Notes: a model not told the origin generated them from the sequence alone. Counted from the first letter of the stretch, positions 5,838 through 52,502 are shown. The stretch: 64,000 bases of DNA from an uncultured Pelagibacteraceae bacterium (GCA_902624455.1 CACNXQ010000003.1:39029-103028), one strand, 5' to 3'. Numbers and translations: made by a program.

Positions 5838-5921
5838 ATAAATAATTATCAGAATTAAATATTGAATCAGACTCAAACTCAATAGTTTTGCAAAAAACCC
5901 ATTTTGGGTACATAATAAGTT

Positions 5922-9993: not shown

Positions 9994-12900
9994 ATGAGTA
10001 AAAAACTGATCCAAGCATTAGAACCACGAGTTATGCTCGATGGTGCCGCTGTAGCCACGGCATTGGATACAATCGATGAGCTCACTCAATCCAACAAAAT
10101 CGATGAGGGATCAGAAAATAAGAGTACTAAATTTAAAGCAGCTAGCGATACCAAACTTCCATTTGTGAATGGAATTGATGCAAGTCAAAATGCGAAGTCA
10201 CGACAAATTATTTTCATCGATAGTGCCGTTGAAGATATCGATACTCTTATAAACAGTTTTGATGCTCATGCAGAAGTTCATGTCATCCAAAGTGATCAAG
10301 ATGGATTTGTTGAAATTCAAAAAATTCTTTCAGATGAAACAAATGTAGATGCATTGCATATCATCGGTCACGGTAGTGTTGGACAAATCGCATTTGGAAC
10401 AGCTGTTTTAAATAGTGATACGTTAGATGCTTACGAAGATACACTCAAAACCATTGGTTTAAGTTTAAGCGAACAAGGGGACATTTTATTTTATGGTTGT
10501 AATGTTGCTGCCGATCAAAATGGTGAAATCTTAATTAATCAAATTGCGGATATTACGCAAGCAGATATTGCAGCATCAGATGATGTCACAGGTAAAGGTG
10601 GCGACTGGGATCTTGAAAAGCATACAGGTATTATTGAGGCCAATAATATTGATGTTGTAAATTATGAACACTCACTTGCAAATGGAGTAGCTTCAACTGA
10701 TTCATCAGTGGTTGAAATTCACGGTGCTACAAACTATGAGGCACGTTGGACTGACCCCACTAACCGTGACGGACAAATGGATCCAAGCTCCGATCGATTT
10801 ATTATTTCTCAAGAGAGAGCTGATGTAACAGGTGGAGCAGGGACTTTAAGTTTTGACGTTTCTGGTGCGAAAAGTTCGCATACACCAAGTACGAGTGAAC
10901 CAGTTCACGTGTATTTACTTTTCTCAAACGATAATACCGATAGCAACTCTCGTCGATCTGGCTCAAGAACAGGTGTCGTGACTTTTGAAAACGATATTTT
11001 GGGTGTCTTCACTAGCCCCTATAAAACCATTGCAATGACTGGGATTTCAAAACCAAACGCTTCATATCCAACGGCAACTTCGGATAAGATTGGAATGAGG
11101 GATTTAGAATATAAAAACGATAATGCTCCAGGACAGCAGGGGAATAAAGACTGGTTTAGAATTTACAATTCAAACAGGTCGATTGAAATTGGTACAAAAA
11201 ACGGACTTAAAGGTGACTTCATTCGTGTCATTACTAGAGCTCCGACTACAGTTGTGGTTGAAGGTAATAATGATGCGGGTTATATCAATGAAGACTCAGC
11301 ATTAAGTGTCACAAATGGTGCTAGTGCAAATGATAGCACGCCTGATACATCAGGAGAACATACAGGTGATGTATTGCTTAATGATACCGGGGGTAACGGA
11401 TCTGATTTATTTGTGAGTGCAATACAAGGAGGATCCGTTGGATCGCTAGTTGATGGTACGTATGGTCAACTAAGGCTCTTTTCGAATGGTTCATACACTT
11501 ACACGGCTAATAAAGATGCTGCTGACACACTTGATGACGGTGATACAGTAACTGACTCATTTACTTATACTGTTAGTGATGATGCAAATAATACCGATAC
11601 TGCAACCATTACAATTACTGTTAGAGGTATCAATGATCCGATTACCGCAGTTAATGACACAGATGCAGTATTTGAAGATCAAAGTATCAGCCGAGGGATT
11701 TCAAGTTCTAAGGAGTTAGATCATGACGATACCGATCCGGATGGTAGTGACTCATCTGGTAGTTTTACAATTACTGCAATCAGAACAGGAAGAGAGTCCT
11801 CAAGTAGCGGAAATGTAACTGGAACTGTTAACTCAGCTCTAAATGGTACTTATGGTGTTCTAACCGTAGGTTCAAACGGATCTTATTCTTATGCAGCCAA
11901 TAGAAGTGGAGCAGACGCGTTAGAAGCAGGTGCATCAGCTATTGATTACTTTACATATACCGTACAAGATCACAGCGGGGGTGACACGGATACAGCTGAG
12001 CTTGCAATTACTGTTACAGGTGTTGGACCAGGCGCTGTGAATGATACTGATACTGTTGCTGAAAATGGTTCCCTCAATCGTAATGCAGCCGCTGGAGTAT
12101 TGGACAATGATGATGATAGTGCTTCATTTGACCAAGAAAATTTAATTGTCACCAACATCACTTCAGATAGCACTGGTAATAGTGGGAATGCTACACAAGG
12201 TGTACTCGGAACCTACGGAACCTTAACAGTTGCAGAGGATGGTAGTTATACATATGTAGCAAATACTGCTGCTGCAGAAGCTTTAGCCGCTGGTGATAAC
12301 AGTCAAACCGATGTATTCACCTATACAGTAAAAGATGATAATGGCGTTAACGCAGATACTGCAACTCTAACCATTACGATACAAGGTCAAGACGATGATC
12401 CTGTCGCATCAGCAGACACAGGAACAGCTACTGAGGATGGTCCACAAGTTTCAGTGAGTGCTGCTAGCGGTGTTTTAGCCAATGATACTGATGTGGATGC
12501 TGGAGAAACGTTAGAGGTTTCAGCTGTTGGGGGTAATGGATCAGCCGTTGGCCAAAATGTTACAGGGTCTCTAGGAACTTTAAATTTAGATGCAGATGGA
12601 TCTTACACATATATTGCTGATCAAGCTGGTGCCGATGCAATTACCGCAGGACAAACTGCGACAGATACATTTAGTTACACCTTAACTGACGGTGAAGGGG
12701 AAACAAGCACGGTAAACCTAGTCATTACGGTTACAGGTAAAGGGCCAGAGGGTGTTGCGGACACAGCAACGGTAAATGAAAACTCAACAGTAGAGAAAAA
12801 CAACGCGGCTACTAATGGTGTATTAGCAAATGATGACGATAACGCATCATTTGATCAAGAAAGCCTTGCAGTAACTGCTATCACGGGAGCATCAGCCGGA

Positions 12901-15900
12901 ACAGTTGGTGGAACAACAGCTGGTACTCATGGTACTCTCACGATGAACCAAGATGGTACTTATTCTTATGCAGCAACTAACGATGCACTTGATGATGGAG
13001 AAACTGTTAATGATGTATTCACGTATACGGTTAAAGACGACGATGATAAAAACTCAAGCACCGCAACATTAACCATTGCAGTAACTGGAGTAAATGACCC
13101 AATTACCGCAGCTGACGATACAGATGGTGTTACGGCTGGGTCAACCATAACAAGAGATGAGGCATCAACCTTTGAGTTAGACCATGACGATACTGACCCT
13201 GATGGTGATGATGTGTCAGGTAACTTTACTATTACTGCTGTAACTCACGCTTCAGGAGATCTTACAGTTGGTCAACAATATACAACATCTAAAGGTAGAA
13301 TTACGATCAATTCAAACGGTTCATATACATATATAGCTGATCAAAGCGGTTCAACAGGCTTATCAAACGGTGCTCAAACAAATGACGTCTTTACATATAC
13401 AGTGAGAGATCACAGTGGAGGTGATACAGACACTGCAACACTTACAATTACAATTACAGGTTCAACTAATAATGCCCCTGTTGCTGATGACCCGGAAGTA
13501 GATGGCAATGCTGGAACGGGATACATCTTAGAAGATCAAACATTGACAGTTACGAATGGTTCTACTGGTGTAACTGGATCTGACAGCAATAATAATAACG
13601 AAACTGGAGACAATACAGGAGACGTTTTAAATAATGATACCGATGCAGATGGTGATCCACTTACTGTTTCTGCAATATCAGGTGGTTCTGTTGGTGCTGG
13701 AGGTGCCACAGGAACATATGGAACATTAACCATTCAAAGTGATGGTAGTTATACCTACAATGCAAATAATGCAAACTCGATAGCAAAAGATACTGAAGCA
13801 ACTGACGTTTTCACTTACACAGTCAGCGATGGCAATGGTGGTACAGATACTGCTACCATAACTATTACTATTTTAGGAGTAAATGATGCTCCAAGTGCAA
13901 GCAATGATACGAATGCTGTTGATGAAGATGCTACAGCATCCAAAAATGCCGGAGCGGGAGTACTGTCCAACGATAGTGATGCTGATACGGGTTCAAGTAT
14001 GACGGTGACTGCAATTACTGGAGTATCAGCGGGTTCGGTTAATGGAACAACAGATGGAACTTATGGTACTCTGACTCTTAATGATGACGGCAGTTATTCT
14101 TATACCGCCAATAAAGCTGCTGCAGACCAATTGGCACACAACGCTACGGCAAATGATGTCTTCACTTATACGGTCAAAGATAACGAGAACGCTACTGCTA
14201 CTGCAACTTTGACTATTGTGGTTACCGGTAAGGGACCTGTTGGTTCAGCTGACACTGCTTCAGTGAATGAAAATGTTTTACTTGAAAAGAATGAAGCAAG
14301 TGGTGTGCTAGCAAATGATAACGGTGGAGATACTGAGAATTTAATTGTTACTAACATTGAATCGAATGATACCAGTAATACCGGCACTGCAGGTCAAGGT
14401 GTTTTAGGAACCTATGGTACTCTCAATATTGCCTCTAATGGAAGCTATACGTATACACCAAATACGGCTGCTGCAGAAGCACTGGATCAAGGTGATGTCG
14501 TTTCAGAAGCCTTTACCTATACCGTAAAAGATGACAATGGTGTCAACTCAAGTACTGCTACCCTTACTATTACGGTAACCGGTGTGAACGATCCGATTGT
14601 AGCAGTTGACGATACCGACAGTGTTGATGAAGGTCAGAGAATAACAAGATTAATCAGTGATGATCAGGAACTTGATCACGATGACACGGATGTAGATACC
14701 GATGATGTGAGTGGAAGTCTTACGATTACAGATATCAGAACAGGTCCTAAGGATGGGACTGGCACCGATGGTTCTGTTAATGTGGCATTACAAGGTGAAT
14801 ATGGAACACTTACTGTACGCCCTAATGGGGGTTATACATACATTGCTGATCAAACAAAATCAGATGACTTGGTTACAGGTCAAACAGGAACAGATATATT
14901 CACTTACACAGTAAGTGACGGCACTGAAACATCGACAGCTCAACTTACTTTCACAGTAACTGGCGTCAACGATAATGACCCTGTTGCAGTGGATGATACA
15001 GATACGGTTAAACGTGATGCTTCAATAACTCGTGCTTCTGGATCTGCATTTGATATAGACTCAGATGATACAGATGCTGATGGAGAAACCCTAACCATCT
15101 CTGCAGTACGAACAGGTCAAGATGAAGGTGGAGGTAAAGGGGGCCCTGCTAGAGTTGGTAAAACACTTGTAGGCACATACGGTACTCTAACCTTGAATTC
15201 TGATGGTAGCTATACTTACGCAGCTGATCAGGATGCAGCGGATAGTCTGAAAAGGGGCGATAGTGCTATTGATTATTTCAACTATACAGTGACCGATGGA
15301 GAAAGAACAGACACAGGAGTAATTGCATTTACAGTTGAAGGTATCAGTGATCCACCTGAACCAGAAGATGATACCCTAGAGGTTGATGCAGGCGCAACGG
15401 CTACAAAGGATGCAACACAAGGCGTATTAAACAATGATAGTGACCCGGATGGAGATACCCTAATTGTTGATAGCATTAGAACGGGTCGAGAAAATAAAAC
15501 AGGTACATCTGGAACAGTTGGCACACCAGGAACAGATGGTACGCCTCTTACTGGCAGATATGGTGACTTAATAATGTATTCTGATGGTAGTTACGAATAC
15601 TCAGCAAATAATGCAAAATCATTAAATCCTGGTGAAACAGCAACAGAATATTTCACTTATACAGCATTTGACACTGATACTTCAGTTCCTGCCGAAATTG
15701 CAATTACGGTTACTGGTCAAAATGATCCACCTGAAGTCGTATTTCCTGTAAATGACCCGATAGTAGTAACAGGACAACAAATCAACATAAGACACAAACA
15801 AATTTTTGACGATCCTGACAGAGGCGCATTTGACATTACTGAATATAAAATTATCGATCCAGAAACAGAAGCAGAAACCAGTCTTCCAGAAGGACTTAGA

Positions 15901-17109
15901 TTAAAGCAAAATAAGTTACATGGAAGTATATCTACTCCTGGTATATATACGATTACTATAAGAGCAATTGATGGAGCTGGTTTATATGCTGATCATACCT
16001 TTACAATTACGGTTCGACCTGCGCCAGGTTTTTTCGCTGAAAATGAACCTATTTTTGAAGAATCATCAGTCAATATTGAACCATTGGTCATAAAGCCTAA
16101 GAAAGATTTCCTAGCAGCAGTCAAAGAGGCATTTAATGAAGGAACATCTAATATCTCTGATGATGGATTTAACTTGGATACCATTTCAATTGCTGACACT
16201 GCATCTCTATCTAAACCATTAAAATTTAATGGTGGCTTGAGATTGATGGACGCAGTCGCTAGTGATGTATCTGATATTGAAGGGGCAGACTTAAAAGTCG
16301 GTGTTAAATTAAATGATGACAACCAAAAAAATGTAGAGTCTTATTCAGGACAACTTTCTGATGGAAAAGCATTACCTGAGTGGATAAGTATCAATCCTGA
16401 AACAGGAGAGACAACTGCAGATATGCCAGATGGTGTTGACCAGGTAGAGGTTCAACTTGTCGCTCTAGATAAAGATGGAAATACAAGAGATATTAATATT
16501 GTTTTAGACAAAGCGAAAATTAAAAATGACCAAGACTTTACTCGAGGTACCGTTGGTCAAACACGAGTTGTTGTTGATAATGACTCTAATGTAAATCTTA
16601 TTCGAGAAAATAATGGTAACGTGAATAACACTGCTTCAAATAATTTGAATGCCGATGCAGACTTTGTTGGCAATATGAAATTAAGCTCACTTCAAATGGA
16701 CTCAGGTAAATTTACAATAGATATTATTGATGATAATCAGTCCAATGTGAAAGCTTATAAAGCTCAACTCAAAGATGGTAGCGCCTTACCTGATTGGGTT
16801 ACGATTGATCCTGAAACAGGAGCTATTTCTGCTGATCCATCTCTAAGTAAAACTGATGTTTCAGTACCTTCATTCATTGCAGATACTCCTACTATTCTAG
16901 AATTAAAGATAATAGCAGAAGATGAGGATGGAAATGAGAGAACAATTGAAGTTGAAATAAACCTTGATGAATTACCAGTTTCAGAAGATGATAGTGCTGA
17001 AAGCCCTGAAAATAATGAACTTTCTTTTATTCCATTAAACGAGCAATTGAAGAACCAAGCTCAACAATCAGATAGCTATGGCGAAAAAATTATGAGTCTT
17101 GTAAGCTAG
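9994..17109 (+). CDS. Giant repetitive surface/secreted adhesin-like protein (N-terminal DUF4347, 12 VCBS-type repeats, cadherin-like C-terminal modules)
   Basis: 2371 aa. N-terminus [14 protein letters not shown] followed by DUF4347-like [14 protein letters not shown]...[16 protein letters not shown]...[10 protein letters not shown]...GGDWDLE. 12 repeats of GTYGTLT..DGSYTY.AN..AADAL..G....DVFTYTV.D..G..[16 protein letters not shown]. C-terminal LPEG/LPEW/LPDW modules. Confidence 0.9.
11260..15735 (+). repeat. In-frame array of 12 diverged ~95-110-aa VCBS-type repeats inside the adhesin gene, with a higher-order pattern of alternating linker types
   Basis: I counted 12 FTYTV/FSYTL/FNYTV/FTYTA cores. 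Linker types recur: ELDHDDTD(P/V)D...FTIT (repeats 2, 6, 10), ANDDDxASFDQE(N/S)L.VT.IT (3, 5) and a related [17 protein letters not shown] linker (9). DNA copies are clearly diverged by eye, not recent duplicates. Confidence 0.85.
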
Positions 17110-17121
17110 TCTCATAAGGTC

Positions 17122-17844
17122 ATGAAAAAATTATATATTTTTTTGACAACGGTTTGTTGTTTTTTACTCATTTTTAAAAGTACTTTTGCCAATGAGTCCT
17201 CAACTCGTATTTTAGTTACGTCAACTGAAGAAGCAACTCTATCCAGCGAAATTGCAGCAAAAGTATTATCCATTCCGGTAAAGACGGGAAATTTATTCAA
17301 AGAGTCAGATCCACTGATTAAATTTGATTGTTCTTTTTTTGAAGCTCAAAAGGATGTGGTCGAGTCAGAATTAGAGAGTGCCAGGGTAACTCTTAAAAGC
17401 AATCAAGATCTTGTCTTGATGAGAGCAATTGGTGATTATGAAGTACAATTATCACAAATTGCAGTAGAGCAAGCTGAAGCTGAGTTAAAGATAGCTCAAC
17501 TTAATACAGATCGATGTATTATTCGAGCACCTTATGATGGTCGTATGTCTGATATCTTTGTGAATGAGTTTGAAAGCATTGAAAGACAACAGCCTCTCTT
17601 GAAAATCATTGGATCGGGTTCGCTAGAGGCTAAGTTAATGGTCTCGAGTAAATGGTTGTCATGGATAACCGTTGGGTATCCTATGCAAATTGTAATTGAT
17701 GAAAATGGTTTAATGTATCAAGCCAAAGTAAGTTCAATTGGTGCAAATATAGATCCAGTAAGCCAGACAATAGATATTACTGCAAAATTTGACGAAAATT
17801 ATGATACATTACTATCTGGAATGAGTGGGACGGCAACATTTTGA
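17122..17844 (+). CDS. Periplasmic adaptor (membrane fusion protein, HlyD/RND-adaptor-like), short form with signal peptide
   Basis: 240 aa. Signal-like MKKLYIFLTTVCCFLLIFKSTFA; lipoyl-like SSEIAAKVLSIPVKTGNLFKESDPLIKFD; coiled-coil; IIRAPYDGRMSDIFV hairpin-return motif. Starts 12 nt after the adhesin stop. Confidence 0.7.
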   Translation: MKKLYIFLTTVCCFLLIFKSTFANESSTRILVTSTEEATLSSEIAAKVLSIPVKTGNLFKESDPLIKFDCSFFEAQKDVVESELESARVTLKSNQDLVLMRAIGDYEVQLSQIAVEQAEAELKIAQLNTDRCIIRAPYDGRMSDIFVNEFESIERQQPLLKIIGSGSLEAKLMVSSKWLSWITVGYPMQIVIDENGLMYQAKVSSIGANIDPVSQTIDITAKFDENYDTLLSGMSGTATF

Positions 17845-19175
17845 GTGAAAACTCTTCTATAAAAATAGCAAGACTAATCACCCTTGAAAAAAAGTTCCGT
17901 ATGTCAGAGACTGAAACGGAGCTTGAATTTACATGTGTTAATGAATTACGAAGTATAATCGATTATAATTTTTTATTTCTTTTAACTAAATCAAATCTTA
18001 ACAAGTTAAAGGTCAAAGCTATCTCAGATATTTCTGTAGTAGATAGAACCGCTCCAGCAGTCACTTTTATCGAAACTCTAATAAAAAAAGACCTTATTCA
18101 AAGTGATGAAATATCAGAATTAAGTCTGAAAGATTTAGAGAATGAAACTGATATTGTATTACCAGAAAATTTTCCAAATGAATTTATCACCGTACCCCTG
18201 ACATCACCTACGAGGGGTAACATAGGTTATTGGGTTATGGTTCGATCTGAGCGTGCAACCAATACTGAACAAGAATTATTGTTACACATTTCAGAAACAT
18301 TTAGCCATGCACTAGGTTCGTTTACTTCAAAAAATTCAATAATGTCTTTCTTTCAAAAAGTATTTACTGGTTGGGTCAAATGGTTATTAATTACCGCTAT
18401 TGCTGCTGCAATGTTTATACCAATAAATATGTCTGCCTTAGCCCCTGTTGAAGTAATTGCAAAAGATCCATCGATCATTACATCCCCTGTTAACGGTGTT
18501 ATTGAAAAAGTATTAGTTAATACTAACGATCCAGTAAGTGTAGGAGATGATTTAGTTAAACTTGATGACTTAAATTTTAAAAACAATTATGAAATTTCTC
18601 TTCAAGAGCTTGAAGTCGCAGAAGCTGAATTGTTAAGAGTTAAGCAATCTTCTTTTACTAATCCTGACGATAAAGCTAAACTTGTGGAACTGTCAACTGA
18701 AGTAGGTTTGAAAAAGAAAGAAGCTGCGTATGCCAAAGAACAGTTAAATTATTCAGTCATTAGTGCTGAAACTAGAGGTGTTGCAGTAGTAGAAGACTCT
18801 ATCGATTGGCAGGGAAGGCCAGTCAGAATTGGTGAAAAGATTTTAACCATTGCTGATCCAACTCAAGTCGAGTTTCTGATTTTCTTACCGACTAAAGATT
18901 CTTTGTTAATTCAAGAGTCTGCAGAAGTTAAAGTATTCTTAGACAGTGATCCTCTTAATTCTTTAGATGCAGAAGTTATTAGAACTTCATACAAACCAGA
19001 ATTAACACCTGAAAATATTCTTGCTTACAGAATATATGCAAGTATTGAGGATGTGGCTCAAAATCCAAGAATAGGATTGAGAGGTACAGCCAAAATTTAT
19101 GGCGAAAAGACCAGTCTATTTTATTATCTTTTCAGGGTTCCTATCAATCTTACCCGACAATTTGTAGGTTTTTAA
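17841..19175 (+). CDS. HlyD-family membrane fusion protein with N-terminal cytoplasmic GAF-like domain
   Basis: 444 aa. TTG start overlaps the upstream stop (TTGA); alternative ATG at 17901. GAF-like ending ITVPLTSPTRGNIGYWVMVRSERATNTEQELLLHISETFSHAL; one TM (WVKWLLITAIAAAMFIPINM); then IITSPVNGVIEKVLVNTNDPVSVGDDLVKLDD plus a coiled-coil and beta-barrel region. Confidence 0.7.
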   Translation: MSENSSIKIARLITLEKKFRMSETETELEFTCVNELRSIIDYNFLFLLTKSNLNKLKVKAISDISVVDRTAPAVTFIETLIKKDLIQSDEISELSLKDLENETDIVLPENFPNEFITVPLTSPTRGNIGYWVMVRSERATNTEQELLLHISETFSHALGSFTSKNSIMSFFQKVFTGWVKWLLITAIAAAMFIPINMSALAPVEVIAKDPSIITSPVNGVIEKVLVNTNDPVSVGDDLVKLDDLNFKNNYEISLQELEVAEAELLRVKQSSFTNPDDKAKLVELSTEVGLKKKEAAYAKEQLNYSVISAETRGVAVVEDSIDWQGRPVRIGEKILTIADPTQVEFLIFLPTKDSLLIQESAEVKVFLDSDPLNSLDAEVIRTSYKPELTPENILAYRIYASIEDVAQNPRIGLRGTAKIYGEKTSLFYYLFRVPINLTRQFVGF

Positions 19176-21281
19176 ATGTTAACACCATTTATCAGACAAG
19201 ATCTTAAACTAAGCAAAGGACCAAAAAAAGAAGATGGTTCTTCAACATGGCTCCTCTACGATGCATTAAGAAACAAATATTTCTCCATCAATAAAAAGGC
19301 TTTTGATTTATTAAGCAACTGGACTGGTGGACAAAAGATGGATGAGTTTATTGTGAAGATGCAATCAATTAATGCATCAATACGTGACGATGAAATAAAA
19401 GACTTTGCTAACTTCTTAAATATTAATAATTTGACTACCAAGAAAACTCAAGACGAAGTCAAATCTCTAGTAGTACAAAAAAATAAATTAAATAAGCATT
19501 GGCTACTTAAACTTGTGCATAATTATCTTTTCTTCAAAATCCCTTTTTTTAGACCAGGCAGTTGGCTAGAAACAACCTTGCCGTATGTATCTGTATTAGG
19601 ATCCAGACTGGTTAGAAACATTATTTACATCTTAGGACTGATTGGTATTTATTTAACAATCTCAAATTATGAAACATTTTTAAATACGTTTTCATATTTC
19701 TTTAATTTAAATGGTTTAATATTTTATATTCTCACCATTATTGTGATTAAAGCATTGCATGAATTAGGGCATGCTTACGTAGCTACATACTATAAATGTA
19801 ACGTATCCTCCATCGGTCTTGCAATGCTGGTATTCTTTCCATTTTTATACACAGATACATCTGATGCTTGGAAACTAACAGATCACCGAAAACGATTACT
19901 GATTAATTTTGCAGGCATGCTGACAGAATTACACATCGCACTGATTGCAACGTTTGCTTGGGCCATCATACCAGAAGGTATTTTAAAAAGCGCAGCTTTC
20001 TTTATAGCAACTTCAAGTTGGATATCCTCTCTCCTTATAAACATAAGTCCGTTCATGAGATTTGATGGCTACTATGTATTATCTGATTATTTAAAAGCCG
20101 ATAACTTACAACCAAGATCCTTTGAATTAGGGCGATGGCAGTTAAGAGAATGGATTTTTGGTTTTAAATTTCAACCCCCTGAGCAGCTGATGAGCAATAG
20201 AAGATGGACGTTTATTATTTATGCATGGTCTACGTGGCTCTATCGGTTCTTTATCTTCATTGGTATTGCATTATTGGTCTATTACTTAACATTTAAAGTG
20301 CTAGGGATAATCTTATTCATTATTGAAATTGTTTGGTTCATCCTTCTTCCAATTTACAGGGAAGTGAAGCGGTGGTGGGGATTGCGTAAATCTATGACAG
20401 TCAATAGAACCTCAATGAGGTCTTTAAGTCTATTTTGTATTTTATTAGTGGCTCTCTTTATACCTTGGAGAACTTCTCTTAGTTTACCAGCAGTTATTGA
20501 GAAAGAAGCTGTGATTGATATTTTTCCACCTGAGGACTCGATGATTAAAAACATTTTTATTGATAATAATCAGATCGTAAAGAAAGGAGATTTATTAATT
20601 AGATTTACTAATCCTTACTTAGCAACTCAAGTTGAACAGGCAATTGATCGTGTAAAACTGATACAAAAGAAACTGGATCGAAGAATAGGATCTGAGTTGG
20701 ATATGAGTAATTTAATGGTTCTAGAAAACCAACTAAAAAAAGAACTGGAAGTACTCAATAATTTAAAAGAACAAAGTAAGGAATTAACAATTTATGCTAA
20801 CCAGGACTCAACTGTTGTAGATTTAAAATATCTTGAGAACAATCAATGGGTCAGTCAGAATGATAAGTTGTTCTCACTAATAGAATCTGGAAATTCTCAA
20901 GTTATTGCATATGTCAATGAGACAGACCTAAATAAAATTAAAAGTAAGAGCACAGGGGTCTTTTTTTCAAAAAATAATGAATATTCAAATATTGAAGTTC
21001 AATTAAGAGATCTTAATGAAACATCTACTGAAGAACTGCCTTACTTATCACTCACATCTTCTTATGGCGGTCCTATTGCAACAAGAGAAGTTGAAGGCAA
21101 AAAAACTTCGCAACGCCCTGAAAAAGCACTTTACCAAGTAAATTTTCAAACTCTCTCACAACACAGCGATCTTCAATGGGAAACGCCTGGAGTCGTTAAA
21201 TTAAAAAGTGAGAATTACAATGTATTTCAAAACCTCTTCAATTTAGTAACATCAACCCTAATTCAAGAAAGTGGTTTTTAA
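19176..21281 (+). CDS. Site-2 protease (peptidase M50) / membrane-fusion-protein chimera with PqqD-like N-terminal domain
   Basis: 701 aa. ATG directly abuts the upstream TAA. N-terminus WLLYDALRNKYFSINKKAFDLLSNWTGGQKMDEF (PqqD-like). HELGH at nt 19758-19772 and NISPFMRFDG at nt 20040-20069 lie within multi-TM segments. C-terminal MIKNIFIDNNQIVKKGDLLIRF plus long coiled-coil and TVVDL (HlyD-like). Confidence 0.8.
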   Translation: MLTPFIRQDLKLSKGPKKEDGSSTWLLYDALRNKYFSINKKAFDLLSNWTGGQKMDEFIVKMQSINASIRDDEIKDFANFLNINNLTTKKTQDEVKSLVVQKNKLNKHWLLKLVHNYLFFKIPFFRPGSWLETTLPYVSVLGSRLVRNIIYILGLIGIYLTISNYETFLNTFSYFFNLNGLIFYILTIIVIKALHELGHAYVATYYKCNVSSIGLAMLVFFPFLYTDTSDAWKLTDHRKRLLINFAGMLTELHIALIATFAWAIIPEGILKSAAFFIATSSWISSLLINISPFMRFDGYYVLSDYLKADNLQPRSFELGRWQLREWIFGFKFQPPEQLMSNRRWTFIIYAWSTWLYRFFIFIGIALLVYYLTFKVLGIILFIIEIVWFILLPIYREVKRWWGLRKSMTVNRTSMRSLSLFCILLVALFIPWRTSLSLPAVIEKEAVIDIFPPEDSMIKNIFIDNNQIVKKGDLLIRFTNPYLATQVEQAIDRVKLIQKKLDRRIGSELDMSNLMVLENQLKKELEVLNNLKEQSKELTIYANQDSTVVDLKYLENNQWVSQNDKLFSLIESGNSQVIAYVNETDLNKIKSKSTGVFFSKNNEYSNIEVQLRDLNETSTEELPYLSLTSSYGGPIATREVEGKKTSQRPEKALYQVNFQTLSQHSDLQWETPGVVKLKSENYNVFQNLFNLVTSTLIQESGF

Positions 21282-33869: not shown

Positions 33870-33891
33870 TTAATACTTGTCATTCAAATTA

Positions 33892-33906
33892 TGTTATATT
33901 ATAACA
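33892..33906. promoter_or_regulatory. Candidate Zur box in the divergent znuC / znuA promoter region
   Basis: Perfect 7-1-7 palindrome TGTTATA T TATAACA in the 70-bp gap between the znuC start (33869) and the znuA start (33940). Confidence 0.7.
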
Positions 33907-33939
33907 CTACACTCAATTATTTATGAAAGCAATAATACT

Positions 33940-34974
33940 ATGAAATTACAACAAAAATTAGGCATCTTATTATCATCTATATCTCTATTTTCTTTTATTT
34001 CATACGCTGAAGCAGAGCCGAAAGTTGTAACTTCTATAAAGCCTTTACATTCACTAATAAGCTATGTGATGGATGGAGTAGGTAGCCCTAATTTGCTTGT
34101 TGATGGAAGTTCCTCTCCTCATACGTTTCAACTAAAGCCCTCACATGCAACAATGCTGCAAGAAGCTGATGTGGTTTTTTGGATCGGCGAGGACTTAGAG
34201 TCTTTCTTAGAGACACCCCTTGACTCGATTGCTGTAAATGCAAGGAAAATAACATTAATGGACTCAGATCAGATTGAATTATTAAAATTTAGGGAAAAGA
34301 ATGTATTTGAAGATCATCATGACGAACACGAGGGACACGATGATCATGACGAACACGAAGGACACGATGATCATGATGAACACGAAGGACACGATGATCA
34401 TGACGAACACGAAGAACATGCTGACGGACATGACGAACACGAAGGACACGATGATCATGGCCATCATCATGGTGAATTCGACATCCACTTTTGGTTAGAT
34501 CCTGAAATCGCAAAGAGTATTGTGAAAATTGCTTCTTTAGAATTATCTAAAGTCGATCCCGCTAATCAAGCTACATATCAAACAAATGCTTCAAACGCAG
34601 TTAGTGAGCTCGATAAGTTAATCAATGACACTAGAACAAAAATAAATAGTGATGCCAAGTACATTGTTTTTCATGATGCTTATCAGTATTTTGAACAAAG
34701 ATTTGGTATCGAAGTTATTGGAGCATTAACAGTCAATCCTGAAGTGTTACCTGGCGCCAAGCAGCTTGCTGAGATCCGAGAAGTTATTGAACATGAAAAA
34801 GTTAATTGCTTATTTTCAGAGCCTCAGTTTAATCCAAGTATTGCCAATACAATTGCACAAGATACAGGTATCAAAGCAGCAGTATTAGATCCTCTTGGAG
34901 CCGAATTAGAGCCTGGAAAAGAATTATATTTCCAGCTTATAAATGATATGGTGAGTTCATTCGAAAGTTGTTAG
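33940..34974 (+). CDS. znuA: Periplasmic zinc-binding protein ZnuA with extended His-rich loop
   Basis: Start moved to ATG 33940 (MKLQQKLGILLSSISLFSFISYAEA signal). Cluster-9 SBP motifs (VVTSIKPLHSL, SPHTFQLKPS, DIHFWLDP, FHDAYQYF). His/Asp/Glu loop of about 50 aa. Confidence 0.9.
   Translation: MKLQQKLGILLSSISLFSFISYAEAEPKVVTSIKPLHSLISYVMDGVGSPNLLVDGSSSPHTFQLKPSHATMLQEADVVFWIGEDLESFLETPLDSIAVNARKITLMDSDQIELLKFREKNVFEDHHDEHEGHDDHDEHEGHDDHDEHEGHDDHDEHEEHADGHDEHEGHDDHGHHHGEFDIHFWLDPEIAKSIVKIASLELSKVDPANQATYQTNASNAVSELDKLINDTRTKINSDAKYIVFHDAYQYFEQRFGIEVIGALTVNPEVLPGAKQLAEIREVIEHEKVNCLFSEPQFNPSIANTIAQDTGIKAAVLDPLGAELEPGKELYFQLINDMVSSFESC
34315..34473 (+). repeat. In-frame 27-nt tandem repeat (HDEHEGHDD units; 3 near-perfect, 2 degenerate or displaced copies) encoding the ZnuA His-rich loop
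   Basis: catgacgaacacgaRggacacgatgat repeated at 34318, 34345 and 34372. A 30-nt variant lies at 34399 and another copy at 34429, followed by catggccatcatcat. Confidence 0.85.
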
Positions 34975-47672: not shown

Positions 47673-47748
47673 GGCTCGATAGCTCAGTTGGTAGAGCAAA
47701 GGACTGAAAATCCTTGTGTCGGTGGTTCAATTCCACCTCGAGCCACCA
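47673..47748 (+). tRNA. tRNA-Phe (GAA)
   Basis: GGCTCGATAGCTCAGTTGGTAGAGCAAAGGACTGAAAATCCTTGTGTCGGTGGTTCAATTCCACCTCGAGCCACCA. Canonical cloverleaf, anticodon loop CTGAAAA, encoded CCA. Confidence 0.95.
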
Positions 47749-47753
47749 CGTAT

Positions 47754-47830
47754 GCAGCTGTAGCTCAGTTGGTTAGAGCGCCTGGTTGTGGTTCAGGAGG
47801 TCGGTAGTTCGAATCTACCCAGCTGTACCA
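47754..47830 (+). tRNA. tRNA-His (GUG) without encoded G-1; G1:U72, A73
   Basis: GCAGCTGTAGCTCAGTTGGTTAGAGCGCCTGGTTGTGGTTCAGGAGGTCGGTAGTTCGAATCTACCCAGCTGTACCA. Anticodon loop TTGTGGT. The base before G1 is T. 5 nt downstream of tRNA-Phe. Confidence 0.9.
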
Positions 47831-49041
47831 CTTTTTACTTGTTGAGATGGAAGTGATAGGACAATGATAAAAAGAGCGATCATAACAAATCCAAAGATCA
47901 TATAGAGATATTCAAAGTCACCAGAAATTTCAAAGCTGTGTGAAATCATTAGTAATGCAATCGGACCTATTGAGAATGATACGATAAATTTAATGCCATA
48001 TACTAAACTTTGATATTTTTCAGGAGAGTACTTTGCTAACAATAAGTTTTCTGCCGGTAAGATACTTGAATTAAAAGCAACTATCATAAGACTGAAAACT
48101 ATCAGCCATACATTTGAAAGACTTATGATAAATAAAAGCAGACATCCTTGGCCAATAATACCAGCTATATAAACAGATTTCTCTGAATAACGGTCAGCTA
48201 GCACTCCACCAATATAATTCATTAGACCGCTTACAATATATATTGCAGCTACAATAAATCCTATTTCTGAGGTGGTTAGGTTTAAATTATTTGCCAGCCT
48301 TATATCAATAACTTTTGGCAAACTGGTCTGTAAAATTTGATATACAAAACTCAAGCAAGCAATACTTATTAGCATTATAATTGCAATTTTAAGCATCTGA
48401 TCTTTACTAGGACTTTTACTAAATTTTTCAGAAGTAATATTTACAATAGAGATTTGTCCAGACCTTATGTGATTTATTAGAAATACGCCTGTAATTAAGG
48501 ATATAATGCCCGGAATAATAAATGCGCTTTGCCAATTAATTAATTGGATTAAAGCACCAGCAAAAAATGCACCTAAACCAATACCAACACCACCAAAAAT
48601 ATTATTCACACCTAGCGCCTTACCAGTTTCTTTTGATGTATTTACAACCCAAGATATACCTGCGGGATGATAAATTGCACAAAACAATCCGAGAAGAGAA
48701 AGACTGAAGAAGAGCATTAATTTATTTGAACTAAACCCACACAAAATCGAGCTTATACCTAGACCTACAAACATCACTGCGATCATTCCAGATCGGCTCC
48801 ATCGATCACTTAACCAACCTGCTGGCAATGCGCCTAAACCTACTAATAGTGAACCAAGAAACCATAAATTTAATAATTCGTTATATGAGTAGCCCCATGC
48901 ATCTTCTATAGCTAAGACAATTACAAAATAGAATGCAGCGAACATGTGCATTAGTAGATGGCCAATTGCTGCATATACCGCTGTCAATTTTGTATTATTA
49001 GTTGTGTTATCCATATTAGAAAAGATAAGCAGTTTTACCAA
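47815..49041 (-). CDS. Major facilitator superfamily transporter
   Basis: 408 aa, about 12 hydrophobic segments, MFS loop motif GWLSDRWSRSG. Alternative start ATG 49014 (MDNTTNN). Stop codon and last 5 codons lie inside the tRNA-His gene on the opposite strand. Confidence 0.8.
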   Translation of the reverse strand: MVKLLIFSNMDNTTNNTKLTAVYAAIGHLLMHMFAAFYFVIVLAIEDAWGYSYNELLNLWFLGSLLVGLGALPAGWLSDRWSRSGMIAVMFVGLGISSILCGFSSNKLMLFFSLSLLGLFCAIYHPAGISWVVNTSKETGKALGVNNIFGGVGIGLGAFFAGALIQLINWQSAFIIPGIISLITGVFLINHIRSGQISIVNITSEKFSKSPSKDQMLKIAIIMLISIACLSFVYQILQTSLPKVIDIRLANNLNLTTSEIGFIVAAIYIVSGLMNYIGGVLADRYSEKSVYIAGIIGQGCLLLFIISLSNVWLIVFSLMIVAFNSSILPAENLLLAKYSPEKYQSLVYGIKFIVSFSIGPIALLMISHSFEISGDFEYLYMIFGFVMIALFIIVLSLPSQQVKSGTAG

Positions 49042-49123
49042 ATATTGGGAGTGATCATTATATGAAAGCCATAAAATTACAAATAAATTGACATTTTCTT
49101 ATAAATAGGGCAATTCACCAACT

Positions 49124-49159
49124 ATGTTGATAATTAAACATCATCATTCACATATCTGA
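49124..49159 (+). promoter_or_regulatory. Candidate His-rich leader peptide ORF upstream of hisS-hisZ-hisG
   Basis: ATG TTG ATA ATT AAA CAT CAT CAT TCA CAT ATC TGA = MLIIKHHHSHI*. Followed immediately by a perfect 9-bp hairpin (GTTTGTTAG 49160-49168 / CTAACAAAC 49178-49186), with a T7 run at 49199-49205. Confidence 0.4.
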
Positions 49160-49250
49160 GTTTGTTAGTAAAAAAAGCTAACAAACCACAACCCCCTATT
49201 TTTTTAAATTGTAAACAACGTTATAGTACTTTTAGTACTAAGGAAGACTA

Positions 49251-50645
49251 ATGAAAAATAAGAAAGATAAATTAAAAGCTAAATTACCGAGAGGTTTTAA
49301 GGATAACCAAGAAGACGTTATTAGTCTGAGGAATGCTGTATCTGATGTTATAAAAAATGAATGTCAAAAATATGCATTTTCAGAAATTGATACCTCTACT
49401 ATTGAATATTCTGAGTCACTTGGAAAATTTTTACCTGATAGTGATAGGCCAGAAGGTGGAGTATTCTCATTTCAAGATGAAGACGGACAATGGCTTTCCT
49501 TAAGATATGACTTAACTGCTCCATTGGCTAGATATGTTGCAGAAAATTATCAGTATCTTAATAAACCATTTAAGAGGTATCAGACTGGATTAGTATTTAG
49601 AAATGAAAAGCCAGGGCCTGGTAGGTTTAGAGAGTTTCTTCAATTTGATGCAGATGTTATTGGAATTCAATCGTCATTTATTGATGCCGAGCTTTGCATA
49701 ATGGTTTCTAATATTTTTTTAAAACTTGGACTAGGTTTTGATAAATTTTGTATCAAATATTCTAATAGACAAATTTGGGATAAGCTTTTTACAGATAATA
49801 AAATAAATGGTGAATTACAAACTTTAGTTTTACGTGCGATTGATAAAAAAGATCGTGTAGGAGAAGACGGAGTTAAACAGCTGCTTACGAAAGGTCGTAA
49901 GGATAAATCTGGTGACTTTATGAAAGGTGTTGGTTTAAGTGACTCTCAGGCTTCAAATATCATTGAGTTCCTTAATTCTAAAACACAAACTAACGAACAA
50001 TTAGAAGAGTTTAATAATTACCTTTCAAATTATAAGGATTATCCGATTGTATTCGATCCATCCATTGTAAGGGGACTAGACTATTATACTGGAATGGTAT
50101 TTGAAGCCGAGTTACTCATAAAAGTTAAAAATGACAAAAATCAAAATGTTATTTTTGGCTCAGTAGCTGGAGGTGGAAGATACGATAAACTTGTTTCTAG
50201 ATTTGGAGGAGAAGATATACCAGCTACGGGTATATCAATAGGAGTTGATAGGCTCATAGTTGCACTAAAACAAGAAAACCTTCTTCAAAGCAATAAACAA
50301 CCGCTTGTAGTTGTGGCAAATATGGATGAAAACTTGCTTTCTAATTACTTGGAGATTGCTGATGAAATTAGAGCCAATAACATAGCTTGTGAGATTTCAT
50401 TCGGCAATAAGAACTTGGCCAAACAGTTAAAGTATTGTGATAAAAAAAATGCAGATGTTGTGATTATTGCTGGTCAAGATGAATTTGATAAAAAAGAATT
50501 ATCTATAAAAAATTTAGCTCTAGGTAAAAAAATCTCAGAAAATATAACTGAAAGAAGTGAATGGAAAGAACAACGAGCAGGTCAACTAAATATTCCGAGA
50601 GATGACCTTATAAACCAATTAAAGAAAATCTTAACAATAGAGTAA
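49251..50645 (+). CDS. hisS: Histidine--tRNA ligase (atypical alphaproteobacterial type)
   Basis: 464 aa. Class II motifs (LRYDLTAPLARY; motif 2 FRNEKPGPGRFREFLQFDADVIG; motif 3 GGGRYD). SD-like AAGGAAG upstream. Confidence 0.95.
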   Translation: MKNKKDKLKAKLPRGFKDNQEDVISLRNAVSDVIKNECQKYAFSEIDTSTIEYSESLGKFLPDSDRPEGGVFSFQDEDGQWLSLRYDLTAPLARYVAENYQYLNKPFKRYQTGLVFRNEKPGPGRFREFLQFDADVIGIQSSFIDAELCIMVSNIFLKLGLGFDKFCIKYSNRQIWDKLFTDNKINGELQTLVLRAIDKKDRVGEDGVKQLLTKGRKDKSGDFMKGVGLSDSQASNIIEFLNSKTQTNEQLEEFNNYLSNYKDYPIVFDPSIVRGLDYYTGMVFEAELLIKVKNDKNQNVIFGSVAGGGRYDKLVSRFGGEDIPATGISIGVDRLIVALKQENLLQSNKQPLVVVANMDENLLSNYLEIADEIRANNIACEISFGNKNLAKQLKYCDKKNADVVIIAGQDEFDKKELSIKNLALGKKISENITERSEWKEQRAGQLNIPRDDLINQLKKILTIE

Positions 50646-50649
50646 TTTA

Positions 50650-51795
50650 ATGTCTATTCAAGAATTGAACTTGCAATTGAAAAATTATTTTGAGTCAAAT
50701 GATTTCACCTATGTTGATTTACCGCTCGTTTTTGACTCTGATGTTTTTTACGAAATGTCTGGAGAAATTTTAAGAAAACAAATGTATTCCTTTTATGATA
50801 ATTCTGGCAAAGAAAAATGTTTAAGACCAGATTTAACTATTCCAGTATGTCATAACTACATTACAAATAGCCAAAAATTTAAATCAGGTAAGCTCTGTTA
50901 CAGCGGACCAGTGTTTAGGTCCTCTATTGAAAGTGAAGGCTCAGTTGAACTAAATCAATCGGGAGTAGAAATTATCTATCAGGATAATAGAAACGAATCT
51001 CAGCTCATCAAAGATATTGAGATCATTCAATGCGCTTTAGAAACATTGAAAAATATTGGCATTGAGAAGATAAACTTAAGATTAGGTAATTTAAAATATT
51101 TTATGAACTTCATAAATGTACTTAATTTACCTCAGAGATGGAAGGAACGTCTATCGAGACATTATTTTCGAAAAGATTATTTTGAAACTTTGCTTGTAAG
51201 ATTATCTAGAGGCGTTGGCTATAATAGTCAACAGAGAGATAAAATAATTAAAGAAATATTAGGAACTGAAACAACAAATTCTAAACATTTAAGAAAAATT
51301 ATTGAAGAGAAAAATATTTTTAAATCTTCACGAACAACCACTGAAATCATCGATAGGTTTAATCAAAAAGCAGATATGATTATTCAAAAAGAAGATGGTT
51401 TGAAGATAGTAGAATTAATTAGAGAATATCAAAAAATAAATGGGAACATTGATGACTATAATCAAAATCTTAACAAATTTATTAAGGATTATGATTTAAA
51501 TAATTTTGAAGATAATACTGAAACACTAAATAAATTCAATGAATTATGTTTAAGCAGTAAGAGCGTAAATGAAGCAATATTTTTGAATAATTTTCGTAAT
51601 ACAATTGAATTTTATGATGGATTGATATTTGAGATTTTTGATACAAGTGGAACCTATCGATTGATAAGTGGTGGAAGATACGACAAGTTGCTCAAGAGCT
51701 TGGGTTCAGATGAAAAATTATGTGCTGTAGGTTTCGCTACATATAATAACGAAATAAATAAGTACTTGGAAAGTAAATCAAATGGACAAAATTAA
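50650..51795 (+). CDS. hisZ: ATP phosphoribosyltransferase regulatory subunit (HisRS paralog)
   Basis: 381 aa HisRS-like catalytic-domain paralog without an anticodon-binding domain (CLRPDLTIPVCHNY, SGGRYDKLL), immediately upstream of short-form hisG. Confidence 0.85.
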   Translation: MSIQELNLQLKNYFESNDFTYVDLPLVFDSDVFYEMSGEILRKQMYSFYDNSGKEKCLRPDLTIPVCHNYITNSQKFKSGKLCYSGPVFRSSIESEGSVELNQSGVEIIYQDNRNESQLIKDIEIIQCALETLKNIGIEKINLRLGNLKYFMNFINVLNLPQRWKERLSRHYFRKDYFETLLVRLSRGVGYNSQQRDKIIKEILGTETTNSKHLRKIIEEKNIFKSSRTTTEIIDRFNQKADMIIQKEDGLKIVELIREYQKINGNIDDYNQNLNKFIKDYDLNNFEDNTETLNKFNELCLSSKSVNEAIFLNNFRNTIEFYDGLIFEIFDTSGTYRLISGGRYDKLLKSLGSDEKLCAVGFATYNNEINKYLESKSNGQN

Positions 51796-52474
51796 AATTG
51801 CTCTTCCAAGTAAGGGTCGTTTAAGGCGTGACATGGAAACTTTGTTTAAAGCAAAACAAATTTCCTTTGCTAACTTATCAAATGATAGAGATTATATCGG
51901 CTCGATTGAGGGACATGATAACATATTAATATATTTTTTGAGTGCTAAAGAAATAACAAACAGACTAGAGGAAGGATCAATTCATCTTGGGTTAACAGGC
52001 GATGATTTGATTCAGGAAAAGGTTGAGAACTTTGAAAGTAAAGTGTCTAAACTTATTAAACTAGATTTTGGTAAAGCTAATTTAGTTGTTGCTGTGCCAA
52101 ACTTTTGGATAGATGTATATTCAATGGCGGATTTAGAAGAAATATGTAATTTACACCGATTAAAAACAACGAGGAGACTCCGAGTTGCTACAAAATATAC
52201 AAATCTTACTAACAATTTTTTTTCAAAATGTGGAGTTCTTGATTACAGGACAGTAATGAGTCACGGTTCAACTGAAAGCGCTCCATTTAATGGATTTTCA
52301 GAAATCATTACTGACATTACTTCTTCGGGTGAGACCTTAAGGGCTAATAATCTTAGAGTATTAGATGATGGTGTAATTTTACAATCATCGGCAAACATTT
52401 TTAAATCGAATATTGCCGAATGGAATAGTAGTTCTGAAAAAATTTGTAATGAATTTATTGATATTTTGACATAA
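51782..52474 (+). CDS. hisG: ATP phosphoribosyltransferase, short form
   Basis: 230 aa. KIALPSKGRL, VATKYTNLT, ITDITSSGETLRAN motifs. 14-nt overlap with hisZ. Confidence 0.9.
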   Translation: MDKIKIALPSKGRLRRDMETLFKAKQISFANLSNDRDYIGSIEGHDNILIYFLSAKEITNRLEEGSIHLGLTGDDLIQEKVENFESKVSKLIKLDFGKANLVVAVPNFWIDVYSMADLEEICNLHRLKTTRRLRVATKYTNLTNNFFSKCGVLDYRTVMSHGSTESAPFNGFSEIITDITSSGETLRANNLRVLDDGVILQSSANIFKSNIAEWNSSSEKICNEFIDILT

Positions 52475-52502
52475 AAAAACCCGGCTTAGCCGGGTTTTTT
52501 TA
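52473..52502. terminator. Bidirectional intrinsic terminator between hisG and groEL
   Basis: aaaaaaa CCCGGC tta GCCGGG ttttttt. GC-rich 6-bp stem flanked by an A-run and a T-run, between convergent genes. Confidence 0.85.

Follow-up and report, generated by a model that had tools for sequence, protein, structure and literature searches.

A conserved histidine-codon leader and hairpin upstream of hisS-hisZ-hisG in SAR11 bacteria, a candidate sensor of charged tRNA-His

The stretch of DNA analysed here, 64,000 nucleotides (nt) from an uncultured Pelagibacteraceae bacterium (GCA_902624455.1 CACNXQ010000003.1:39029-103028; hereafter, the window), carries a histidine-rich open reading frame (ORF) of 11 codons, followed by a hairpin that we call P1, upstream of the genes hisS, hisZ and hisG. 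Both are conserved in front of hisS among SAR11 relatives, and the way in which they vary makes it highly probable that they form a functional, translated element that depends on its histidine codons, a statement that claims nothing more than this. With moderate confidence, we favour reading it as a cis-acting element that senses charged tRNA-His for hisS-hisZ-hisG and regulates in the direction described below. A first-pass annotation of the window had already suggested that histidine or charged tRNA-His controls the synthetase together with HisZG. The conserved His codons, the covariation of P1 and the presence of His-rich leaders in distant alphaproteobacteria speak for that suggestion, while the structural detail that accompanied it did not hold.

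The leader ORF (49124-49159; ATG TTG ATA ATT AAA CAT CAT CAT TCA CAT ATC TGA) encodes MLIIKHHHSHI* in 11 codons plus TGA, with histidine at codons 6, 7, 8 and 10 (49139-49147 and 49151-49153), each of them CAT, just as had been annotated. Its position upstream of hisS was also annotated correctly, but the distance of 92 nt given for it was not, as the gap between the leader stop and the hisS ATG at 49251 is 91 nt (49160-49250). At least four His within six codons are found in 3 of the 1366 short ATG-ORFs on both strands of the window, and the leader ORF is the only one of these three that is intergenic and beside his genes. The decisive argument that ORF and hairpin are not a product of chance is, however, that the same pair precedes hisS in all of the approximately 70 related loci with a complete upstream region. 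Elsewhere on the plus strand, CATCATCAT occurs only once (34462-34470), inside the gene of a znuA-like zinc-binding protein (33877-34974), where it presumably encodes a His-rich loop and has no relation to the leader.

These comparisons draw on 176 loci around relatives of hisS, gathered by an alignment-based scan (a single-protein scan of GTDB genomes gave no match). The window genome is of the SAR11/Pelagibacteraceae type: G+C is 31-37% across most of the 64 kb, and the closest HisS proteins in species-representative genomes, at no more than 69% identity, belong to uncultured Pelagibacteraceae single-cell and metagenome genomes. In all of the approximately 70 loci (HisS 59-99% identical), an ATG-initiated ORF of 11 codons is found at the same place. 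The first 55 loci contained 37 unique leader sequences; the codon counts and the alignment used here are based on 31 unique SAR11 sequences. The encoded peptides follow the pattern M-x4-H-H-(H)-x-H-I-stop (for instance, MFIIKHHHLHI, MIVFTHHHIHI, MFKFKHHHYHI, MFNFKHHTAHI and MITLLHHHYHI). The ATG, the length of 11 codons and the CAT triplets at codons 6 and 10 are constant in all 31 sequences, codon 7 encodes His in 30 (CAT in 22, CAC in 8) and codon 8 in 21 (CAT in 11, CAC in 10, another codon in the remaining 10). Codon 11 is an Ile codon in 29 (ATC, ATT or ATA), the stop is TAA in 28 and TGA in 3, and residues 2-5 and 9 are unconstrained. The His codons, the ORF length and the hairpin abutting the stop are retained even across SAR11 clades whose HisS proteins are only 59-69% identical. 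While third positions and the remaining residues have drifted, length, frame, start codon and histidine identity have not; we infer from this that the ORF is translated as a leader and that its regulatory codons are important. A covariance model comprising ORF, hairpin and C-tract (R1) matched exactly once per locus, each time before hisS, and once in the whole 64-kb window. Further copies of the element elsewhere were considered and discarded, as R1 matches lie solely upstream of hisS.

P1 (49160-49186, plus strand) begins at the base that follows the leader stop, as it does in every aligned sequence of this short type. Its arms, GTTTGTTAG (49160-49168) and CTAACAAAC (49178-49186), form a perfect stem of 9 bp, to which RNAfold adds a U.G pair; the predicted energy is -11.4 kcal/mol (z = -4.55), and none of 200 shuffles was as good. 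For the alignment of 31 sequences, which extends from the promoter region up to the ATG of hisS, RNAalifold returned P1 as the sole helix. All nine pairs are standard in 31 of 31 sequences; compensatory changes are seen at three of them (C-G/U-A, G-C/A-U and A-U/G-C), and four more vary one-sidedly through G.U. The first-pass annotation had described both this hairpin and the T7 run downstream of it (49199-49205, plus strand), and both are borne out by reading of the sequence and, for the hairpin, by RNAfold. It had also proposed examining relatives for conservation of the His-codon run and the stems; that comparison finds them kept in all of the approximately 70 loci, with synonymous CAT/CAC changes in the codons and compensatory pairs in the stem.

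Four nt after P1 (4-5 nt across clades) lies an A-CCCC-n-T-n-T motif (ACCCCCTAT, 49191-49199, plus strand), hereafter the ACCCC motif, whose columns A113, C114-C117, T119 and T121 (alignment A2) are invariant. RNAalifold, constrained folds and a test with slid registers found no conserved pairing partner for it, and it could be a relic or a site for a protein or for Rho. An ATTAAA-like block downstream of P1 is also invariant or nearly so. The T7 run begins 12 nt from P1. The L001, L002 and L014/L045 clades have a T5 run, and four of six clades overall have a T-run, which is absent from the L034-L040 clade (CCCCCTTATACC) and the L039/L041/L043 clade (CCCCCTATATAA). Three other candidates in this region were set aside. 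A pseudoknot between the A-rich loop of P1 and the T-run would be possible, by reading of the sequences, in four of the six clades only. A 5′ hairpin joining the start codon with His codon 6 (ATGTTTA...TAAACAT) can be drawn in several clades, but it was not counted as evidence, given that any AUG is complementary to a CAU and that the register varies from clade to clade. Finally, an ORF of 29 codons in another frame, from a TTG at 49162 to a TAA that overlaps the hisS ATG (TAATG; 49249-49251), is interrupted by stops in other clades and is, for want of conservation, probably due to chance.

The sequences upstream of the ORF suggest that its mRNA begins at or next to the AUG, so that the ORF would be leaderless or nearly leaderless. 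A -35-like box, TTGACA (49088-49093, plus strand), whose TTGAC is invariant in the alignment and is followed by A or T, would be part of the leader promoter, and a -10-like box, CAATTC (49111-49116, plus strand), lies 17 nt after it and 7 nt before the ATG. The latter has the form C-A-W-W-T-C, with C1, A2 and T5 invariant and C6 nearly so, and the stretch between it and the ATG varies in sequence but is steady in length (6-7 nt). The first T of TTGAC and the A of the ATG are 35-36 nt apart in every clade, and the divergent loci L062, L070, L072 and L123 keep these 35-36 nt with TTGCAT, TTGAAT or TTGAAA and unrelated spacers. The case for a leaderless start is made by this spacing, which is the distance from position -35 to +1, together with the invariant ATG and the lack of a Shine-Dalgarno sequence upstream of it. 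A sigma-32-like reading of CCCCCTAT was rejected, as no fitting -35 box accompanies it. At 5886-5924 of the window, TTGCAA, 17 nt, CATAAT, 5 nt and an ATG directly precede a gene of 354 codons (5922-6986), which may be a second leaderless transcript.

Going by the sequences compared, His-codon leaders before hisS recur in Alphaproteobacteria in at least three forms, of which the SAR11 short form is the most reduced. A long type, with HisS 42-51% identical, is found in divergent Pelagibacteraceae genomes and in marine and freshwater metagenome contigs, where a tRNA-Phe gene is followed by promoter-like boxes, a His-rich ORF of 15-25 codons (encoding, for instance, MKYIYISTHRYHPHARHVLS and MIKKNRIFRTVHRHHNFHAGCMLAI), an AT-rich spacer, tRNA-His(GTG) and hisS. 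Such leaders were located in L062 (2285-2497), L070 (1844-2044), L072 (2289-2500), L123 (180-389), L087 (2180-2377), L094 (2309-2503), L126 (2310-2503) and L158 (139-332). Their sole conserved helix is a hairpin, GCTAGGC...GCTTAGC, situated inside the last codons of the ORF, which passes the terminator scan in L062 and fails it in L087. A His-codon leader in front of a tRNA-His gene is unusual; moreover, the hisS ATG of this type lies 5-13 nt after the 3′ CCA of the tRNA, and the hisS message must be either freed by tRNA processing or read without a Shine-Dalgarno sequence. The third form, similar to that of Caulobacter, is represented by two high-G+C loci with MTRTAHHHGHHHPTLAGSAGGLVA and MTRFAHHHHGHHHPTSQSGIGRDRLA upstream of hisS and several GC-rich hairpins. 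The Rfam family RF01528 (‘CC3513’, a Caulobacter small RNA) matches these leaders on the minus strand, opposite to the leader ORF, with 46.1 bits in L148 (576-750) and 35.5 bits in L125 (2233-2389), the cutoff being 40. The reverse complement of the RF01528 consensus holds a run of CAC/CAT His codons; either CC3513 is a true antisense RNA or the family records an attenuated hisS leader on the wrong strand. A weak terminator-like site was noted on the minus strand of L148 (583-569). In Martelella, Zhengella, Notoacmeibacter and many other alphaproteobacteria, no His-rich ORF was found within 400 nt.

Classical attenuation, in which the position of the ribosome would decide whether a terminator forms, is a reading that we consider highly improbable for the SAR11 element. 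The stem in question had been brought forward by the first-pass annotation, which saw a possible terminator or alternative pairing in the complementarity between ATAGGG (49105-49110) and CCCTAT (49194-49199), next to the T7 run. The complementarity is real, and it extends to 8 bp in the window (AAATAGGG, 49103-49110; CCCTATTT, 49194-49201). Additionally, GG/CC and the adjacent A-U pairs are kept in most sequences, one pair changes from A-U to G-C in three of them, and a T-run follows in four of the six clades. However, this register is paired in 71% of the alignment cells, and moving the 3′ partner by 1-3 columns yields 50-75%; at +3, both the pairing (74.6%) and the covariation exceed those of the proposed register. 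The long-range pairing is thus no better than its slid controls and carries no signal in these A/T- and C-run sequences. In addition, the 5′ arm is flanked by the -35-like and the -10-like box and precedes by 14-21 nt an ATG located where transcription is expected to start, and because of this position it is probably untranscribed promoter DNA. The L034-L040 clade lacks the GG, two clades lack the T-run, and the stem would enclose a loop of 83 nt.

The search for other parts of a classical attenuator led to the same result. A terminator scan of the window, L014 and L087 found no intrinsic terminator between the leader ORF and hisS, and the only leader hairpin that passes the scan is that of the long-type locus L062. 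The absence of a terminator in the leader is meaningful, since the operon ends with a GC-rich, bidirectional intrinsic terminator (52472-52502; AAAAACCCGGC-TTA-GCCGGGTTTTTTT), which shows that this genome uses canonical ones. The T7 run, being 12 nt away from P1, is not a terminator tail; the terminator suspected there is contradicted by the negative scan and by the two of six clades in which the run is missing. Folds in which nt 1-31, 1-40 or 1-46 were blocked lose P1 but show no mutually exclusive antiterminator or other replacement helix common to the clades and, consequently, the classical switch between an antiterminator (2:3) and a terminator (3:4) is not present. A 3:4 pairing of the 3′ arm of P1 with the TTTGTAGTA block or with the hisS start was seen in single clades only, by eye and in constrained folds, and a GGG/CCC mini-terminator would be possible solely in the L014/L045 clade, where the 3′ arm of P1 is GCGGGC. 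With no terminator found and P1 12 nt from the T-run, the earlier remark that the geometry is not that of a textbook attenuator was well founded. No Rfam family, including His_leader (RF00514), T-box and RF01528, matched the window at its gathering score or positions 48900-49400 at E <= 10. T-box leaders are the usual control of hisS in Firmicutes; the leader described here comprises only about 127 nt and one conserved helix.

How, then, could the element sense charged tRNA-His? In the model that we favour, transcription would start at the leader AUG or within a few bases of it, and a 70S ribosome would load on the 5′ end. When His-tRNA is scarce, the ribosome would stall with CAU codon 6, 7, 8 or 10 in the A site and cover approximately nt 1-40; P1, which begins at nt 37, would stay largely folded and the 5′ end would stay occupied. 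When His-tRNA is plentiful, the ribosome would reach the stop codon and, with a front edge at about +15 from the P site, melt the whole 5′ arm of P1; after its release, a naked, untranslated leader of about 90 nt, with C in excess of G, would remain before hisS. The ribosome is known to shield some 15 nt 3′ of the first base of the P site and to unwind mRNA from about +11 onwards. P1 would accordingly be untouched when His codons 6-8 are in the A site, whereas with His 10 there the front edge would be near nt 40 and P1 would lose up to four of its nine pairs, and with the stop codon there the whole 5′ arm would be covered. A vacated leader would lead to premature loss of the transcript before hisS, while an occupied one would allow RNA polymerase to read through.

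As there is no conserved intrinsic terminator or antiterminator, the output step can only be guessed. The most likely output would be that RNA polymerase terminates in the ACCCC/U-rich tract downstream of P1, by a factor-dependent (Rho-type) or pause-assisted mechanism, even if, taken by itself, this guess is a doubtful one. In such a case, the CAU-rich ORF would be part of the Rho loading site and P1 a pause or spacer element; in lambda tR1, for instance, the boxB hairpin separates the two halves of the rut site. Whatever the output, the association is with His codons and not with one peptide, given that leaders of different sequence recur before tRNA-His-hisS or hisS. A broader formulation, which we regard as a tentative possibility, is that SAR11 and its relatives have a minimal, leaderless and terminator-less ribosome-stalling sensor (His mini-ORF, hairpin and ACCCC) with a non-classical output, for which Rho loading, pausing and 5′-end protection are candidates.

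Several observations weigh against the charged-tRNA-His model. There are 18 C and 9 G in the first 100 nt of the leader, and direct reading (not a tool count) finds 0-1 G between P1 and the TTTGTAGTA block in several clades, but this excess of C over G reaches only the 87th percentile of the 100-nt windows here, and the rut-like argument is weak for that reason. The model also leaves the strong conservation of P1 and of the ACCCC motif unaccounted for. In the long-ORF relatives, P1 is within the ORF, directly after a His codon, where a stalled ribosome would melt it, so that the geometry differs between lineages. The -10-like CAATTC is poor in comparison with the sigma-70 consensus, and a sigma-70 promoter scan made no call at the leader boxes. 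Finally, transcription might bypass the leader altogether, if the conserved TAGTAT block in front of hisS serves as a second promoter.

This block is part of P2 (TAGTACT-TTT-AGTACTA, 49224-49240, plus strand), a hairpin or DNA palindrome that abuts the Shine-Dalgarno sequence of hisS. P2 is predicted in both the minimum free energy and the centroid structures of the window. Its left half, (T/G)AGTA(T/C), is invariant in all clades without covariation, while its right half differs between clades in sequence and position, with pairing kept; candidate readings of P2 are an RNA hairpin, a -10-like TAGTAT box or second promoter, and an operator. The Shine-Dalgarno sequence itself, AAGGAAG (49240-49246, plus strand), was identified by direct reading 4 nt before the ATG, and its conservation does not extend to the L001, L034 and L039 clades. 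In L034 (2480-2503), L039 (2480-2506) and the same region of L041, a mini-ORF of 3-6 codons (ATGAATGTA TGA, or ATGAATGTAAATTATGAATAA) overlaps the hisS start, and the clades that have it have a hisS without Shine-Dalgarno, an arrangement that suggests translational coupling or re-initiation.

The main alternative to a termination output is that the His-codon sensor acts after transcription, either through protection of the 5′ end from decay or through P2 and the access of ribosomes to the hisS initiation site; we think this unlikely. In its first variant, the transcript would be shielded from 5′-end-dependent decay by a ribosome that has stalled 15-30 nt into it, much as a stalled ribosome protects the 5′ end and stabilises ermC mRNA. 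Such a mechanism would agree with the lack of a terminator in the leader and, provided that the mRNA is leaderless, with an ORF placed at its very 5′ end; in addition, the leaderless poly-Cys short ORFs of mycobacteria act translationally (10.1101/834739). Against an output after transcription, duplexes between the His tract and the hisS ribosome site have, in representatives of eight clades, energies of -2.1 to -6.7 kcal/mol, no better than those of random coding windows or shuffles (fraction of controls at least as good, 0.22-0.83). Furthermore, no conserved alternative pairing joins P1 to P2, the hisS Shine-Dalgarno sequence is not conserved and, in the window, P2 leaves it free.

We regard as very unlikely that the element does not regulate hisS at all, and that the ORF encodes a functional His-rich micropeptide (e.g., a metal-binding one) or is incidental to DNA signals, such as divergent promoters or a TGTAGTA/P2 palindrome serving as the operator of a TrpR/HisR-type repressor. 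What invites such an explanation is that the spacer TAAATAAGG between the -35-like and -10-like boxes and the left half of P2 are conserved as sequence without covariation, that CAT at codons 6 and 10 never varies, not even in the third base, and that the proteobacterial HisR motif, TGTAnTA..., resembles TTTGTAGTA (PMC9413887). By contrast, synonymous changes occur at His codons, P1 covaries as RNA, and three unrelated peptide types (of 11, 20-25 and 24-26 residues) share only their richness in His and their place before hisS or tRNA-His. The operator reading of P2 was rejected, since the 18-bp spacing of the palindrome is at odds with the 20-bp HisR motif and tests of neighbouring ORFs revealed no TrpR-family gene.

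In its proposed mode of action the element resembles leader-peptide attenuators, but two features that define the classical family, the intrinsic terminator and the antiterminator, are lacking. In enterobacteria, his operons are controlled by leader-peptide attenuation via His codons. As in hisL (RF00514), a short ORF with a His cluster lies in the 5′ leader of histidine-pathway genes and the expected signal is charged tRNA-His. However, the SAR11 element has four His codons and not the seven of hisL, matches no Rfam family, contains one conserved hairpin in place of a terminator/antiterminator set, is probably leaderless, and would control hisS-hisZ-hisG and not hisG...I. The E. coli pheM-pheST system, in which a leader peptide controls a synthetase operon through a canonical terminator/antiterminator, is similar in that a leader ORF rich in cognate codons precedes a synthetase gene, by which the synthetase would respond to the charging of its own tRNA; the SAR11 element differs from it in lacking the terminator/antiterminator and in also driving, if functional, the first biosynthesis enzyme. 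Rho-dependent leader-peptide switches (tnaC, mgtL and speFL) likewise have a short leader ORF without an intrinsic terminator, and the position of the ribosome decides whether a C-rich stretch is exposed, but the C/G bias of the SAR11 leader is modest and its rut site and Rho dependence are only guessed.

In the Bacillus cereus group and C. difficile, His-leader peptides have been described upstream of hisZ and a hisS paralogue (PMC2965389; PMC9413887). They also place a His-codon ORF before members of the hisS and hisZ families, but they were found through premature terminators with alternative hairpins, which they possess, and they belong to a different phylum and have no sequence similarity to the SAR11 leader. 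The mycobacterial poly-Cys ORFs lack an intrinsic terminator as well, and the SAR11 leader would share with them a sensory ORF at the 5′ end of the transcript and ribosome occupancy as the signal. In them, the Cys tract pairs with the downstream Shine-Dalgarno region (10.1101/834739), whereas the corresponding pairing of the SAR11 His tract was tested and not found. Closer in phylogeny, the Caulobacter-type leaders have a His-rich ORF (MTRFAHHHHGHHHP..., MTRTAHHHGHHHP...) directly upstream of hisS and a stop-spanning hairpin followed by ACGACCCC, which is reminiscent of P1 and ACCCC. By contrast with the partnerless ACCCC of SAR11, the C's of ACGACCCC pair with a GGG in the ORF; these leaders are, moreover, GC-rich and longer, with several further hairpins and an RF01528 model on the opposite strand, they show no similarity to the window at E <= 10, and R1 does not match them. 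The literature searched contained no description of a hisS leader peptide in SAR11 or other alphaproteobacteria, and the study of Pelagibacter RNAs by Meyer et al. (2009) makes no mention of hisS, histidine or leader peptides.

The genes downstream of the leader are those that had been annotated, as an NCBIfam search confirms. All three are on the plus strand: hisS, encoding histidine--tRNA ligase (49251-50645; TIGR00442, 386.8 bits against a cutoff of 286.75), hisZ, for the regulatory subunit of ATP phosphoribosyltransferase (50650-51795), and a short-form hisG, for ATP phosphoribosyltransferase itself (51782-52474; TIGR00070, 168.2 bits against a cutoff of 75.75). The match of hisZ to NF008953 (250 bits) is below the cutoff of 384, and the assignment is based on HisZ models being its best NCBIfam matches and on its place between hisS and hisG. 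At 209 nt, the spacer before hisS is one of the longest between genes in the window, which is very compact; upstream of the leader, the spacer is bounded by a divergent MFS transporter gene (47815-49041, minus strand). Beyond the latter, there are hisD and a tRNA-Phe and tRNA-His pair (47673-47830), in which tRNA-His(GTG) (47754-47830, plus strand) adjoins tRNA-Phe. This tRNA-His has no encoded G-1, a T standing before the gene, and combines G1.U72 with A73 (GCAGCTG...CAGCTGT-ACCA); we take it to be of the atypical type of an alphaproteobacterial group that includes Pelagibacter, with a matching divergent histidyl-tRNA synthetase. Far from the leader, positions 9994-21281 hold an ORF of 2371 codons (9994-17109), then two RND-adaptor-like genes and a weak match to an HExxH intramembrane metalloprotease, a set with the appearance of a giant protein, secreted or on the cell surface, and the genes for its export; G+C rises to 0.42 at 12-16 kb of the window.

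SAR11 bacteria are among the most abundant organisms of the ocean and have very few transcription factors, and each conserved cis-regulatory element therefore says much about the control of their metabolism. The interest of the present one lies mainly in the organism, in the minimal architecture (about 80 nt, with no terminator/antiterminator apparatus), in the output step and in the sister arrangement with the leader before a tRNA-His gene. If the model is correct, histidyl-tRNA synthetase and the committed step of histidine synthesis (HisZG) would be coupled to the charging of tRNA-His and, in the sister lineages, charged tRNA-His would feed back on tRNA-His, the synthetase and the first synthesis enzyme as one unit. 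The ratio of leader to hisS coverage would offer a testable handle on histidine limitation in metatranscriptomes and, should the output mechanism prove to be new, the element would illustrate how small an amino-acid attenuator can be and still work.

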